A stretch of 64,000 nucleotides of DNA from Vulcanimicrobiota bacterium. Lineage in GTDB: Bacteria > Vulcanimicrobiota > Xenobia > Xenobiales > JADMJV01. Within the stretch, counting starts at the first letter, position 1. Every line of letters starts with the position of its first letter. Below are positions 37,496-41,943 of the stretch, in pieces. The stretch covers positions 302,934 through 366,933 of the forward strand of contig JBFWNU010000004.1 of the NCBI GenBank assembly GCA_050250895.1. The letters run 5' to 3'. The notes beneath the pieces were generated by a model. The model had not been told where the DNA came from, did not search any database, and saw only the letters and a list, made by a program, of their open reading frames with translations. The position numbers and the translations under genes are program-made.

Positions 37496-38728
37496 ATGCA
37501 CGCGACCCGAACCCTGAGCCAGGCCGCCGACACCACCGAGCGCATTCGCCGACTGATGAAAGGTCATACCGACCGCCAGGCCGAGGCAGAGATCCTGGCT
37601 TTGCTAGACGAGCAGTCCGCGCCCGACCTCAACTACGTGTTGGAGCACCTTGACCTGGAAGCGCTCTTCAACGATGTCGACGATCACCTCTGGGGGCCTC
37701 AAAACAAGACCCGATTGCTCGAAATGCTGGGCCGCGAACGGCTGGGCGACCTGGATTCGCCGGCCCGGGCCGCCATCATCGATGGTCTGCAGCGGGGTTG
37801 GACGGCCCTGACCGAGGAAGAACGCCGAAGTCGCGTCGAGGGCGGCGGAGGCAGCGAAGAGCGGGCCATTCGAGATGTCTTCGTCGGCACCCACGGCCAC
37901 CAACTCACCGAGGTCAAAAACCTGGTCAACGCTGGCGCCGACCACTACGACATGCACAATCTGTTGGGGCACGATGTGGACGACCCCAACCTGGTCGGCC
38001 AGATGCTCGATCACTTTGCCGCCACCCCGAGGCGAGGCGAAATCAAGCCGCTGAGCGACATCGACGACACTTTCTATGCCAACTGGAAAGACCAGCGCTT
38101 TCCCTCGAAGACCGTCTATCCGGGCGTGCTCGCCTTCTATCAAGAACTCGACCGCGGCCCCGACGAGGCTCATCCCCAGCCCCTGGGCGACCTGACCTTC
38201 CTCACGGCCCGCCCCGAGGACCCATGGGGCATCGTCAAAGACCGGGCCCACCGCGATCTTCGTCAACGCGGCATCCCCCACGCGGCGGTGCTGGCCGGCT
38301 CGGTCACGACCCTGGCCGACAACGAGAAGATCGCCCGCAAGAAGTTCGAGAACTTCGAGGAATACGCCCGCATCTATCCCGAGTACGACTTCGCCTGGAT
38401 TGGCGACAGCGGTCAAGGCGACGCCATGCTGGCCGAGCGCCTGCTAAGTAGCCACCCCGAGCGGGTCAAGGGAGCCTTCATTCACGACGTGGTCGGCCTT
38501 GACGACCAGGCTCGCCAGCAATTACGCGAGCGGGGAGTGCGCGTCTTCGACACCTACGTGGGAGCGGCCCTCGAGGCCCATCAGGCCGGCCTCATCTCGT
38601 CCGAGGGCGTGCAACGGGTTGCCCAGGCCGCCCAGCAAGACTTCTCTCGTCTCGAATTCAGCGATGACCGGCAGCGCCAGGCCCGCCTCGTCGAACTACA
38701 AGCCGACCTGTCTCGAGTCCAGCAATAG
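37496..38728 (+). CDS. App1-type phosphatidate phosphatase (HAD-like) domain protein
   Basis: SDIDDT, FLTARP and WIGDSGQGD motifs. Confidence 0.8.
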   Translation: MHATRTLSQAADTTERIRRLMKGHTDRQAEAEILALLDEQSAPDLNYVLEHLDLEALFNDVDDHLWGPQNKTRLLEMLGRERLGDLDSPARAAIIDGLQRGWTALTEEERRSRVEGGGGSEERAIRDVFVGTHGHQLTEVKNLVNAGADHYDMHNLLGHDVDDPNLVGQMLDHFAATPRRGEIKPLSDIDDTFYANWKDQRFPSKTVYPGVLAFYQELDRGPDEAHPQPLGDLTFLTARPEDPWGIVKDRAHRDLRQRGIPHAAVLAGSVTTLADNEKIARKKFENFEEYARIYPEYDFAWIGDSGQGDAMLAERLLSSHPERVKGAFIHDVVGLDDQARQQLRERGVRVFDTYVGAALEAHQAGLISSEGVQRVAQAAQQDFSRLEFSDDRQRQARLVELQADLSRVQQ

Positions 38729-38756
38729 CCAGGGATGTATCCATTAGAATCCCCCG

Positions 38757-38940
38757 GTTGGCTTCGCTAGAAGACTATTCTGAGAGACTGATTCACGCTA
38801 TTCTTTCTGTAGAGGCCACGACACGAACGGCCTACCAAGAACAAAATTCAGGAAGTCACGACTTCCGCAGGTTTCGGCCCCAGGCAGGGGCCGTCAAGAA
38901 AGAGGCCCCGGGCCAGAACCCCGGGACCTCTTTCGCATTT
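38757..38940 (+). ncRNA. candidate ~185-nt structured RNA
   Basis: TAGAAT at 38745-38750, nested complementary segments, terminal hairpin GAAAGAGGCCCCGGG...CCCGGGACCTCTTTC. Confidence 0.35.
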
Positions 38941-38959
38941 GGCGAGATCCCCAAAAATG

Positions 38960-39074
38960 TTAAGCAAACTTAACAAATTGCCCCCTAGACGAACCGGTTC
39001 GAGGTGGGATACCACTAGTGCACACTACTCCAAAAAGTCGCCTCGGGACTGCCATCCCGGGGCTTTTCTCTTTT
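38960..39074 (+). ncRNA. sibling sRNA-like unit, copy 1 (upstream boxes + conserved core + terminator)
   Basis: TTAAG-N5-TTAAC, CCCCTAGACGA, GTGGGATACC, GTGCACACTACTCCAA, GCCTCGGGA-N6-TCCCGGGGC, then a U-rich tail. Confidence 0.6.
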
Positions 39075-39119
39075 AAGGCCCCACGGAATAGGCGGGTCGT
39101 CTCTGCCGACCGTGGGAAG

Positions 39120-39527
39120 ATGAAACGACTGCTCCTTTTCTTGCTCCTACTCAGCCCCGCTTTCGCCCAGGTCGAGACCCTCTCGGTGGACGGCATCTAT
39201 CTCGACACCCCTGCTTCCCAGCAGGCCTGGCTGCCCAACCCCTGCCCGGATGGCAGCTACACCGCCGGGGAGACCACCGTCGAAGTCCGCTCGGGCAAGA
39301 TCATCAACGTGACCGGCACCTTCCTGAGCATGGGCCACCACCAAATGGCCGCGGTGGGCCAGGCGACCGACGAACTCGCGCTAACGCTCGGCCAGCCCAG
39401 CGACACGCTCTATGGTTGCGGCCCCCAGCGAGGCGACCACGTGCGATTCTATCACCATCTGGGCGTCATCGTTTGCGGAGGCGAGAAGGTCACCCAGGTG
39501 CGCCTAGAACACGTTAAGAAACCTTAA
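39120..39527 (+). CDS. secreted hypothetical protein (paralog of 42165..42686)
   Basis: Signal peptide MKRLLLFLLLLSPAFA. Shares VDG..LDTP and V.GT.L..G...VG...G.P with the paralog. Confidence 0.7.
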   Translation: MKRLLLFLLLLSPAFAQVETLSVDGIYLDTPASQQAWLPNPCPDGSYTAGETTVEVRSGKIINVTGTFLSMGHHQMAAVGQATDELALTLGQPSDTLYGCGPQRGDHVRFYHHLGVIVCGGEKVTQVRLEHVKKP

Positions 39528-39628
39528 CAATCCAACCCCTAGACGACCGGCGGAGGAGTGGGATACCCATGGTGCACACTACTCCAATAGCTGCCTCGGG
39601 ACCGCCATCCCGGGGCGTTTCTCTTTTT
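39514..39628 (+). ncRNA. sibling sRNA-like unit, copy 2
   Basis: Same blocks and spacing as copies 1 and 3. Confidence 0.6.
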
Positions 39629-39724
39629 GAGCATCTTCAAGAACTCGCTCCGTGTGGCCGTCCGGCAGAAAAGTGTAATGAACTGGACGCAGGAATCTGC
39701 CTGATCATTGGGAACGACGGTCAT

Positions 39725-40420
39725 ATGTCCAACACCTACAGAATCATGCCGTCCCACTCGGAGTATCTTGCCATAGAAGTTGTCGGCGAAGAGATGCTCG
39801 TCTTCGACCCGATGTCTGGGCGGGCGCACTGCCTGGACAAAATCACCGCAACGGTATTCCAGGCGTGCGACGGAAGAACCCAGATGCACGAAGTCGCCCA
39901 TCGACTAGGCGACGGCGGCGGCGACCTATTGATTCTCACCCTCGAAAAACTACGCCAGGCGAATTTGATAGATGGGGCCCCGGCCAAGACCACCACCCGC
40001 CGAGAGTTGTTGGCAGGGCTAGGACGAATTGGTGTCGCCTTGCCACTGATCACCTCGTTGGCGGTCCCCCGTCCCGCCGCGGCGGCGTCGTGTGTTGCAA
40101 ACTGCATTGGGGAGGGCCTACCGGTCGTAGATGCTAACGGAAATCCGACGGGGTGCGCGGCCTGTCTACCTTCCATAGGAGCTACAACTTGTCCAACCAC
40201 TTTCTGCATGTCCTTCTACGAGTGTTTTGATACTGGGAACAACATCGTCCCCTGTAACAGCGCTGCGGCCGGCCCTTCTCTTTGCGACGACCCCATCAAC
40301 AGCCGCGATACACCAACCGGTTTCACCGGATGCCAATCCACGTCCAGCAACGCCAACCCTTCCTGCGCTACGGCTCGAAATACATCCGCTAGCCTCTACA
40401 TTTGCTGTTCGTGTTCTTAG
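39725..40420 (+). CDS. PqqD/RRE-domain protein fused to twin-arginine-like leader and Cys-rich C-terminus
   Basis: EVVGEEMLVFD...AHCLDKITATVFQACDG (RRE), then TRRELLAGLGRIGVALPLITSLAVPRPAAAA, then 14 Cys. Confidence 0.8.
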   Translation: MSNTYRIMPSHSEYLAIEVVGEEMLVFDPMSGRAHCLDKITATVFQACDGRTQMHEVAHRLGDGGGDLLILTLEKLRQANLIDGAPAKTTTRRELLAGLGRIGVALPLITSLAVPRPAAAASCVANCIGEGLPVVDANGNPTGCAACLPSIGATTCPTTFCMSFYECFDTGNNIVPCNSAAAGPSLCDDPINSRDTPTGFTGCQSTSSNANPSCATARNTSASLYICCSCS

Positions 40421-40445
40421 GGCTCCGGGAGGCGACCACAACACA

Positions 40446-40560
40446 TTAAGAAGCCTTAACAATTTAACCCCTAGACGAACGGCCCAGGAGTGGGATACCC
40501 ATAGTGCACACTACTCCAATAGCTGCCTCGGGACCGCCATCCCGGGGCGTTTCTCTTTTT
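40446..40560 (+). ncRNA. sibling sRNA-like unit, copy 3
   Basis: Core and terminator almost identical to copy 2. Overlaps the 3' end of the S41 gene in antisense. Confidence 0.6.
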
Positions 40561-41689
40561 GGAGCACCTTCAACAACTCTCGAAATCCGGCCTCGGGCAG
40601 CGGGTCGGGACCCTCGTTCCACCCCACTTCGACATCCGGGGCAACCCCCACGCCCTCGAGCCGCTCGCCGTCGACCCTGACATCGGCCTGAGCGAGATAA
40701 AGGGCGTGACCGTCCGGCAGCAGGTGCAAGCCGCCACCCAGCACCGCGCCGCGCGTCTTCTCGCCCACCAGCAGCCCCCGCCGCGAGCGCTTGAAGGCGT
40801 GAGCCAGCAGCTCTTTACCACTGCTGACGCTGCCGTCGATCAGGACCACGACTGGGCGATTCCAGGTCGAGCCCGGCAGGTCGAACTTCTCGCCCTCGGG
40901 CGAAGTCATCGTCAACGACGGAGTGGCCGCGAAAAGCTCCATGTACTTGGGCTGGGCCCCACCCCAACTGCCCCTCAAGTCCAGCACCAGCCCCTCGGCG
41001 CCGGCCAGGGGACCTTCGAGCACGGCCCGGAGTTCTTCTTGATAAGCCTCACCAGCGTAGGACCACATCCTGACATAGGCGAGGCGACGGCCCTCGTGCT
41101 CTTGCATCCTGGCCGAGGCGCGGATGGCCTGCAGAAAGAACCGCCGCGGCTGGATATCCTGGGGCACGACCTCGAGTTCAAGCGCATCCCCTCGCTTCTC
41201 GATGGTCAGCCGGCACGCTTTACCGGCCCTGCCCCGGAACGAGTCGATGGGATGAAAGGGCTGCCCATCCACGCTCACGATTCGATCGCCACGCTGCAAC
41301 TGATGGCCCGGCCCACCCGGAACGACATCCCAAACCACCCCCTCGCGCGTGACCACACCGATGCCCTCGTAGTGCGGCAACTCCCCGCCAAAGAGCGCCG
41401 TGATGGCCTCTGCCTGGGGACCGTAGGCGAACACGTCCAGCAACTCATAGTAGGCTGGCTCGCGAGCGCTGTAGAGGTGGGTGTGCGAGGCCTCGAGCCG
41501 GGCCAGATAGTCATTCACCACTTTCACCCGCTGCTCGCCATCGAGCCCCTCGACCGCCTCGGACGCCTCCTGCCGAAAGCGCTCGAAGTCGTTGGCTCGA
41601 TAAAACCCGCTGGCCACCAGCGACCAGACCCTTTCGACCAAAGTGTCCTGGACGGGATGGAGCAGCAGAAGCAGCAGCAGAAATCTCAT
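40511..41689 (-). CDS. S41 family peptidase with PDZ domain
   Basis: LEASHT, PDZ GDRIVSVDG, LDLRGSWGG, SVSSGKELLA and LEGVGVAPD motifs. Confidence 0.9.
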   Translation of the reverse strand: MRFLLLLLLLHPVQDTLVERVWSLVASGFYRANDFERFRQEASEAVEGLDGEQRVKVVNDYLARLEASHTHLYSAREPAYYELLDVFAYGPQAEAITALFGGELPHYEGIGVVTREGVVWDVVPGGPGHQLQRGDRIVSVDGQPFHPIDSFRGRAGKACRLTIEKRGDALELEVVPQDIQPRRFFLQAIRASARMQEHEGRRLAYVRMWSYAGEAYQEELRAVLEGPLAGAEGLVLDLRGSWGGAQPKYMELFAATPSLTMTSPEGEKFDLPGSTWNRPVVVLIDGSVSSGKELLAHAFKRSRRGLLVGEKTRGAVLGGGLHLLPDGHALYLAQADVRVDGERLEGVGVAPDVEVGWNEGPDPLPEAGFRELLKVLQKEKRPGMAVPRQLLE

Positions 41690-41740: not shown

Positions 41741-41780
41741 GCCACAACCTGTTAACAATCGTCACAAACTGTCAACAGAC
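41741..41780. promoter_or_regulatory. four 10-bp-phased direct repeats (OmpR/PhoB-type operator-like)
   Basis: GCCACAACCT GTTAACAATC GTCACAAACT GTCAACAGAC. Confidence 0.45.
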
Positions 41781-41820
41781 AAATCGATACAGAATCGGCC
41801 TGGTTGGCTAAGATAATGAC

Positions 41821-41893
41821 ACAACCGAATAACCTAAGTCACCAGGTCCAACCTCTCTCCGCGTGCTAACCAAACCTGGTGGCTTTTTTTTTT
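41821..41893 (+). ncRNA. candidate ~70-nt sRNA with CU-rich loop
   Basis: TAAGAT at 41809-41814. 12-bp stem AAGTCACCAGGT/ACCTGGTGGCTT, loop containing CCTCTCTCC, T10 tail. Confidence 0.6.
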
Positions 41894-41943
41894 GCCCTGA
41901 AAAGGTCAAGGAATCTCCAAGGCGGCCAGGCTAGAATGAGGTC

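Follow-up and report, generated by a model that had tools for sequence, protein, structure and literature searches.

Sibling units in a Vulcanimicrobiota genome as candidate genes for a family of very short trans-acting RNAs

The 64,000-nucleotide stretch of a Vulcanimicrobiota bacterium genome analysed here (contig JBFWNU010000004.1, positions 302,934 to 366,933 of the forward strand; hereafter the window) contains three units of ~120 bp, all co-oriented on the + strand, which appear to be sibling genes for a small regulatory RNA (sRNA). We give slightly better than an even chance to the reading in which every one of them is transcribed on its own into a regulatory RNA of only ~52-57 nt that would act in trans and consist of an unstructured 5' seed of 15-20 nt followed by the hairpin of its own terminator. 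At the level of sequence comparison the sRNA-gene reading is well supported, and the original prediction of separate promoter-RNA-terminator genes forming a multicopy family is upheld by five copies in the own genome, by further copies in relatives and by covariation of the terminator.

When positions 38700-40800 were read and aligned, the same blocks were found in the same order in all three copies: a TTAAG-N5-TTAAC pair of boxes, CCCCTAGACG, a diverged stretch of 12 nt, GTGGGATACC, 6 nt and GCACACTACTCCAA, followed by a hairpin of 9-10 bp (GCCTCGGGA / TCCCGGGGC, taking the form GCCTCGGGA-CYGCCA-TCCCGGGGC) and a T-rich tail. The whole units, each comprising promoter, RNA and terminator, span 38957-39077 (copy 1; 129.1 bits, E 7.5e-35 against covariance model R1, see below), 39511-39630 (copy 2; 127.5 bits) and 40443-40562 (copy 3; 128.5 bits). 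Within copies 1, 2 and 3, respectively, the boxes lie at 38960-38974, 39514-39528 and 40446-40460, TAGACG at 38986-38991, 39540-39545 and 40472-40477, GATACC at 39008-39013, 39562-39567 and 40494-40499, and GTGCACACTACTCCAA at 39018-39033, 39572-39587 and 40504-40519. The blocks, their order and their places are as first described from 38960, 39514 and 40446, and the gap between TAGACG and GATACC is exactly 16 nt in every copy. The predicted RNA of copy 1, placed by fold, terminator call and covariation, is ~55 nt long (39020-39074, 5' end inferred); it would begin with the seed GCACACUACUCCAA (39020-39033), as the 5' 20 nt are unpaired in the fold, and continue through a 9-bp hairpin at 39040-39063 (z-score -3.24) into a U-rich tail at 39064-39074. 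Folding and a terminator scan place the corresponding RNAs at 39574-39628 (hairpin 39592-39617) and 40506-40560 (hairpin 40524-40549), and all three hairpins were called as + strand terminators by a simple consensus scan. With three or fewer mismatches allowed, the window contains the 16-mer GTGCACACTACTCCAA three times, compared with a mean of 0.19 in shuffled sequence, where three matches were reached in 0 of 100 shuffles. Similarity ends at the edges of the units and the flanks of the three copies do not align, with the exception of ~25 nt downstream that are common to copies 2 and 3. Since these two copies are 93% identical and share this sequence beyond the terminator, they are recent duplicates.

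A profile search of the whole 9.5-Mb assembly brought the number of copies in the own genome to five, with the additional two at C2:846433-846553 (-) and C6:495122-495236 (-), and gave no other convincing copy. The covariance model R1, made from six sequences with the terminator as its only structure, matched 8 of the 16 genomes of the family; in a 151-genome sample of the phylum it matched seven genomes, all of the same family, and none of the 135 genomes from 20 other families. A further model, R2, built from 48 matches and run on 40 genomes of the order, found members in both genomes of the own genus (g1) and in seven of the eight genomes of a sister genus (g3), so that the conservation in relatives proposed as a check on the family is indeed present. 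The same model gave a terminator-only match in one of six genomes of genus g2, no match in the five genomes of family f2 and matches that were both weak and partial in two of the 19 genomes of family f3. The copy number varies from 1 to 7 per genome, and in one genome (G013:C112) three copies follow one another at distances of 266 and 400 nt; the intervals are too small for sizeable genes and contain, on both strands, nothing but short open reading frames (ORFs) that overlap. When public collections were scanned for the exact pattern, 9 stretches from genome contigs and 12 from metagenome contigs were obtained, all of which match the covariance models except one metagenome stretch (L089). The titles of the matching genome records give the organism as Vulcanimicrobiota bacterium, "bacterium" or, once, Selenomonadaceae bacterium. 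This last record, the metagenome-assembled genome contig JBBCJA010000014.1, holds a family member that scores the same as a copy from genus g3 (G005:C14), and may be mislabelled as to organism. The NCBI taxonomy lists Vulcanimicrobiota as a phylum, its name for Eremiobacterota, and among the genomes sampled the unit family appears to be confined to one family of this phylum. The genes next to the copies are not the same from one copy to another (APP1-like, S41 peptidase, zinc-ribbon, TauE, MAPEG and GAF proteins), and conservation in related genomes is independent of them, with no synteny tying the RNA to one gene. Rfam 15 gave no match at the gathering threshold over the whole window or over the loci of five relatives, and at E up to 10 the region 38800-40700 gave only eight matches at chance level (13-19 bits), none of them to the units as such, which agrees with the family not having been recognised when it was first described.

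The conserved anatomy was established on the 31 distinct sequences among the 48 matches. The core GCACAC is present in 29 of them, with GCACGC and ACACAC in one each, and the two bases that precede it vary (GT, TT, AA, AT, AC). The stretch that follows it is pyrimidine-rich and lineage-specific, being CTACTCC in the own genus, TTCTTGG in most copies of the sister genus and TCCTCG or TTCTCG in a few genomes of the latter. No conserved start codon or open frame was found in front of the core in the family sequences. The terminator is completely different in sequence between the genera but its pairing is kept: in the alignment fitted to the model, 97.8% of the cells of the helix are in standard pairs and 7 of the 9 pairs have changed on both sides, a covariation score reached by 0 of 500 shuffles, while slid controls pair at 25-65%. 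The earlier argument that kept blocks and spacing with diverged spacers point to selection is reinforced by this result, since the conservation is block-wise across two genera and the changes in the hairpin, to which a covariation check had been directed, are compensatory. Transcription would accordingly end at an intrinsic terminator consisting of a GC-rich hairpin of 9-10 bp and a U-run. The 50-57 nt from the presumed start to the U-run fold into an unpaired 5' end of 15-20 nt and one hairpin (z-score -2.7 to -4.1); the whole 117-nt unit has no unusual folding stability (z-score -1.1 to -1.6), whole-length alifold detected no conserved structure beyond the terminator, and alifold of the longer RNA form discussed below adds only a 4-bp helix of invariant bases. 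By folding and by the 31 sequences, the ~55-nt RNA with an unpaired 5' end that contains CUACUCC, as originally proposed, is the best-fitting form. The alternative fold offered with it, pairing GGAGUGG with CUACUCC, was rejected, as the helix exists only in copies 2 and 3, and over the family as a whole 65.6% of its cells are paired, hardly different from the 64.8% of shuffled sequence, and covariation is absent.

The distance between TAGAC and GGGATA is 15 nt in 25 of the 31 sequences, while 7 to 10 nt separate GGGATA from GCACAC. Two DNA blocks held at constant spacing, with a looser spacing to the RNA core, suggest a -35/-10-like pair. Two extra copies in the congener G001 (L049 and L054) lack TAGAC and carry TGTGnCATACT at the place of GTGGGATACC, reading TGTGCCATACT or TGTGGCATACT exactly where the others read GTGGGATACC, and one sister-genus copy (L044) has TATAAA at this position. 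From the G001 replacements GATACC can be aligned with CATACT as a -10 hexamer following TGn; this putative hexamer lies 6 nt upstream of GCACAC, and the start would be expected ~7 nt downstream of it, at the G of GCACAC in the own genus and two bases earlier in most copies of the sister genus. In the reading we favour, a sigma-70-family promoter composed of a -35-like TAGAC(G/A), a 16-nt spacer and an extended -10 (TGnGATAmn) would direct initiation to the G of the invariant GCACAC or to an adjacent base. In copy 1 this core promoter would occupy 38986-39013, with TAGACG as the -35-like and GATACC as the -10-like element and a 16-nt spacer ending in TGG. A canonical promoter with TAGACA as its -35 is found in front of the tRNA-Ser gene of the own genome, the other transfer RNA promoters of which are of the ordinary TTGACA-N17-TATAAT type. 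Copies from the sister genus and the C6 copy have an A/T tract upstream of TAGAC, at the position of an UP element, where the window copies have the TTAAG/TTAAC boxes instead. The two boxes of copies 1 and 2 can in addition be read as a palindrome, GTTAAG-N4-CTTAAC (from 38959 in copy 1), and in copy 1 they are a possible regulator site (38960-38974, about -61 to -46 from the presumed start). It is probable that in the own genus a regulator binds to these boxes upstream of the -35. The original proposal of a regulator binding a tandem repeat would apply to copies 1-3, where the boxes are present, and not to the C6 copy or any of the sister-genus copies, which lack them; in the C2 and G001 copies they are degenerate.

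Other promoter types were considered and rejected. A sigma-54 promoter is not consistent with the GG-GC distance, which is 11 nt in all copies of the own genus compared with 10 nt in this class, nor with the C6 copy, which has no GG. For sigma-28 (FliA), whose consensus is of the type TAAA-N15-GCCGATAA, the units read TGGGATAC at the equivalent place; the own-genome flagellin gene (C1:571150-571330 (+)) does have the canonical -10 GCCGATAA upstream. The own genome encodes two FliA/WhiG-type sigma factors above the family cut-off, the gene for one of them being 4.5 kb from the flagellin gene. A scan of the own genome for TAGA[CT]-N14-NGGGA[TA]A gave 19 strict matches against 9 in a reversed control, of which four are sRNA copies, one lies at a PilZ-domain gene and most of the others looked intragenic. 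Across five relatives there were 20 matches against 13 in controls; 12 of these are sRNA copies, and three of the remaining eight were judged plausible promoters of protein genes. The TAGAC-N15-GGGATA pair therefore does not mark a large regulon. The PilZ-domain gene (C2:650617-651025 (+)) is preceded by TTAACA, CCTAGATG, 14 nt and GGGATACT, as in the sRNA copies, and its Shine-Dalgarno and start region has two blocks complementary to the seed. As a co-regulated target it was set aside, since the G001 orthologue (73% identity) lacks the promoter blocks and shows only weak complementarity.

The proposed seed comprises GCACAC and the pyrimidine-rich stretch after it, which in RNA would read CUACUCC in the own genus and UUCUUGG, UCCUCG or UUCUCG in the sister genus, and it would be complementary to a Shine-Dalgarno-like purine run followed by GUGUGC. 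For the own genus the complement is GGAG(U)AGUGUGC, that is, a Shine-Dalgarno run and then GUG, and for the sister genus, allowing G-U pairs, it is AGGAGGUGUGC-like or GAGGAGUGUG-like. The RNA would thus be likely to act by pairing across the translation initiation regions of messenger RNAs (mRNAs) and blocking the access of ribosomes, possibly with the help of Hfq, which is encoded in the own genome, and the several near-identical copies would provide either extra dosage or separate inputs. Seed-complementary sites are found over real-looking start regions, including the start of an isocitrate/isopropylmalate dehydrogenase-family gene (C7:151171) and AGGAGUAGUGU directly before the AUG at C6:586665; the start regions at C8:238342 and C14:41338 are also among the top candidate targets. 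For the candidate target L174 no orthologue was found in the five genomes searched, and L172 had one weak partial match in G001. The complement of the sister-genus seed was not above controls in five genomes, where the near-matches inspected lay mostly inside coding frames. Regarding the pairing of CUACUCC with Shine-Dalgarno regions, as first suggested, the complementarity is plausible but the target scans do not go beyond shuffled controls.

Several results weigh against the reading of the units as genes for short trans-acting RNAs. The complement of the 14-nt seed had 31 matches with up to two mismatches, five of which are the genes' own antisense, compared with 6-95 for 20 shuffled seeds. 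RNAduplex was applied to 7232 start regions, taken from crude gene calls and with a choice of "first start" that is biased by GUG-containing sites; the best non-self duplex had -23.0 kcal/mol compared with minima of -18.6 to -23.2 for shuffled seeds, and 128 start regions were at or below -16 kcal/mol compared with 20-264. The site at C7:151171, the best of the candidates that overlap a start codon, is lost in the 81%-identical G001 orthologue. On the side of the RNA itself, the pair counts for the terminator come from an alignment that was fitted to the model and from related genomes that are not independent, and the 5' end is one that we infer from sequence. Most copies have a -10-like hexamer that does not end in the usual T, a consensus scan called no sigma-70 promoter in the region, and in the own genus the boxes and TAGACG have nearly the geometry of a genome-wide TYAAG promoter class. 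Furthermore, a gene in the same orientation follows three of the five own-genome copies at a distance of 25-95 nt, so that roles for read-through are possible. Twelve public sequencing runs were found to contain this stretch, in small shares; all were DNA runs, with no RNA run among them.

The TYAAG class bears on the most serious of the alternatives, to which we would assign a distinctly smaller probability than to the short RNA. It takes the units as the same gene family but has transcription in the own genus start ~7 nt after TAGAC(G/T), which would serve as an activator-dependent -10 with the boxes replacing the -35, so that an RNA of ~85 nt would carry GUGGGAUACC and the seed internally. 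Among the 59 TYAAG-N6-TYAAG pairs in the genome, 13 are followed exactly 10 nt after box 2 by TAnnnT, compared with 0-1 at each of 15 other offsets, and three of these 13 promoters read TAGACT, as do the C2 and G001 copies. In the window copies TAGAC begins 26 nt from the start of box 1, just as in this class, and streptococcal csRNAs have CiaR promoters of matching geometry (PMC3091779: NTTAAG-N5-TTTAAG, 10 nt, -10). In the window copies, however, the hexamer is TAGACG, and the T expected at the end of a -10 is replaced by G or A in most members of the family; box 2, with the sequence TTAAC, lies 1 nt off its position in the TYAAG class; and neither the C6 copy nor any sister-genus copy has the boxes, although TAGAC-N15-GGGATA is kept there. 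Two G001 copies have no TAGAC at all and carry a consensus-like -10 beside the core, and the extra 5' part of the longer RNA has no conserved helix. Overall we clearly prefer the short form to the long form, though both promoters may be used. As observations on the class itself, its boxes are 11 bp apart (for example at C4:17274 (-), C4:100953 (+), C8:206158 (-) and C8:277164 (-)), and this spacing is about twice as frequent as the baseline among spacings that are not multiples of three (171 versus about 85). TAGACT at C4:17274 is followed after 7 nt by an ATG, suggestive of a leaderless start.

It is improbable, in our estimate, that the short RNA binds or titrates a protein such as Hfq or another RNA-binding regulator, or acts as a sponge, with no pairing to mRNAs. 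The target signal that lies within controls, the high copy number per genome and the presence of Hfq would all suit such a role, but the most conserved part of the RNA is an unpaired 5' stretch typical of pairing seeds, this stretch changes between genera and yet stays pyrimidine-rich, and the loops of the sister-genus copies have no repeated protein-binding motif such as GGA. Slightly less credit still is due to the units being cis-acting leaders or attenuators, with regulated termination ahead of the adjacent downstream gene. Although co-oriented genes begin 45, 95 and 25 nt after the U-runs of copies 1, 2 and the C6 copy, they are mutually unrelated (two unknowns and a TauE exporter), and copy 3 has no sense gene after it, as had been noted originally, its sole follower being a convergent S41 peptidase ORF. 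The tandem copies of G013, with no sizeable genes between them, also argue against leaders, as do the lack of a conserved anti-terminator pairing and of any match to a riboswitch or leader family in Rfam. A passive dispersed repeat without a function of its own, whether resembling a miniature inverted-repeat transposable element or derived from a duplicated intergenic segment, is very unlikely: the near-identity of copies 2 and 3 and their common ~25 nt beyond the terminator do indicate at least one recent duplication, but the block-wise conservation with diverged spacers across two genera, the compensatory changes in the hairpin and the G001 copies that keep the RNA part under a different promoter are not expected of such a repeat, and no terminal inverted repeats or target duplications were seen on reading the units. 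We give least credence of all to a leaderless small ORF beginning at the GTG of GTGCACAC (MHTTP...). Its frame is open in copies 1-3 and in the C2 copy, and in copy 1 continues into the downstream gene A; the start codon position is nevertheless AAG or ACG in most family members, and the frame would have to extend across a terminator hairpin in which the changes preserve pairing and not amino acids. Extending the favoured reading of short trans-acting RNAs, we mention as an unlikely idea that these ultra-short RNAs could have a 5' end imitating what the ribosome sees of a start site, and that the family could be a copy-number-tuned general brake on a class of GUG-initiated mRNAs in Eremiobacterota, in which the anti-Shine-Dalgarno half of an anti-Shine-Dalgarno and anti-GUG 5' end has been retuned between genera with GCACAC fixed, and that the window could hold an sRNA island in which these genes and a second candidate downstream are under one box-binding regulator.

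The units are interspersed with protein-coding genes that can be linked to the sRNA system only putatively, as neighbours of its copies. Upstream of copy 1 is an APP1-like phosphatase gene with a hairpin of its own. Gene A, between copies 1 and 2 (39120-39527 (+)), encodes a protein of 135 residues with no family match and a signal-peptide-like N-terminus, so that its product looks secreted. Gene B, between copies 2 and 3 (39725-40420 (+)), encodes 231 residues with a weak PqqD-family match (TIGR04353, 23.3 bits against a cut-off of 35, residues 21-66) and no Pfam match; a twin-arginine-like signal is located mid-protein (residues 90-120) and the C-terminal third is rich in cysteine. The convergent S41 peptidase ORF (40511-41689 (-)) has its last ~16 codons antisense to the terminator and seed of copy 3 (40511-40562). 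Similar sequence follows copy 2, and it may therefore be that the duplication replaced the original 3' end of the peptidase gene.

The second multicopy sRNA candidate, unrelated to the first, lies 1.2 kb downstream of copy 3 (41745-41895 (+)). Including the copies at C2:646226-646299 (+) and C1:809330-809407 (-), there are three in the own genome, with promoters that combine GTTAACA or GTCAACA boxes with TAAGAT, TATGAT or TATTAT as the -10. The predicted RNA is ~75 nt long (about 41818-41893) and would form a 12-bp stem with a 26-nt loop containing CCUCUCUCC, followed by a U10 tail. The RNA parts of the copies are 94-95% identical and the promoters have diverged. Of the 15 other genomes in the family, 14 gave no blastn match and G013 a single one of 22 nt (E 0.0098); Rfam had no match either.

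Eremiobacterota/Vulcanimicrobiota are known mostly from metagenomes, and full-text literature searches gave no small RNA paper for either name, among all three papers that contain both terms and among the best 10 of 5,185 matches to a broader query, just one of which named the phylum. The family is a well-supported first candidate for post-transcriptional control in this group. It would also be a compact promoter-seed-terminator unit that could be tested in a heterologous host, and it adds comparative data on the promoter architecture of the phylum. It reveals no new principle, as sibling sRNAs with anti-Shine-Dalgarno seeds are well known.

With regard to such systems, the Qrr RNAs of Vibrio are several near-identical siblings that act additively or redundantly, are transcribed from sigma-54 promoters and have four stem-loops. 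The units described here differ in having one hairpin, in the GG-GC spacing and the C6 copy already mentioned, and in matching no Rfam family. OmrA and OmrB of enterobacteria are adjacent siblings switched on by a response regulator, with a variable middle part between the conserved seed at the 5' end and the terminator hairpin; the 5' terminal seed is shared with the present family, but the Omr RNAs are about 85 nt long, exist in two copies and belong to Proteobacteria, and the Rfam models detect no similarity. Several of the LhrC genes are arranged in tandem, and the RNAs use pyrimidine-rich motifs to pair with ribosome binding sites rich in purines; the UCCC motifs concerned are several and are located in loops and linkers. 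There is no sequence relation to the present RNA, for which a single 5' terminal seed is predicted. In Listeria monocytogenes, LhrC1-5 are described in PMC4132741 as a multicopy sibling family induced through a two-component system, and resemble the family reported here in being multicopy siblings.

The streptococcal csRNAs are the closest of the systems compared. According to PMC3091779, they comprise two to six similar genes per genome, each with its own promoter and terminator and a product of 51 nt upwards, with an unpaired stretch complementary to the Shine-Dalgarno sequence and start codon and with 11-bp-phased TTAAG-like direct repeats in the promoters. The present family would have in common with them the size range, the copy number, the anti-Shine-Dalgarno and anti-start logic and the TTAAG-type boxes. 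However, it is found in an unrelated phylum, has no Rfam match even at E up to 10, and is predicted to have one hairpin and a seed at the 5' end, whereas the csRNAs have two stem-loops flanking the seed. The boxes here are TTAAG-N5-TTAAC with 11 nt to TAGACG, precede a -35-like element and are lacking in most members, and the start codon mimicked would be GUG, not AUG; the units have neither the NTTAAG-N5-TTTAAG arrangement 10 nt from a TATAAT-like -10 nor the two stem-loops by which csRNAs are defined in that source. The original analogy to Qrr and csRNAs therefore holds for the sibling principle, with csRNAs the nearer, but does not amount to membership of either. Since there is no Rfam match, only one hairpin, a promoter that differs in its details and a different phylum, the units would belong to none of the csRNA, LhrC, OmrA/B and Qrr families, and most probably represent a new sRNA family of a known kind.

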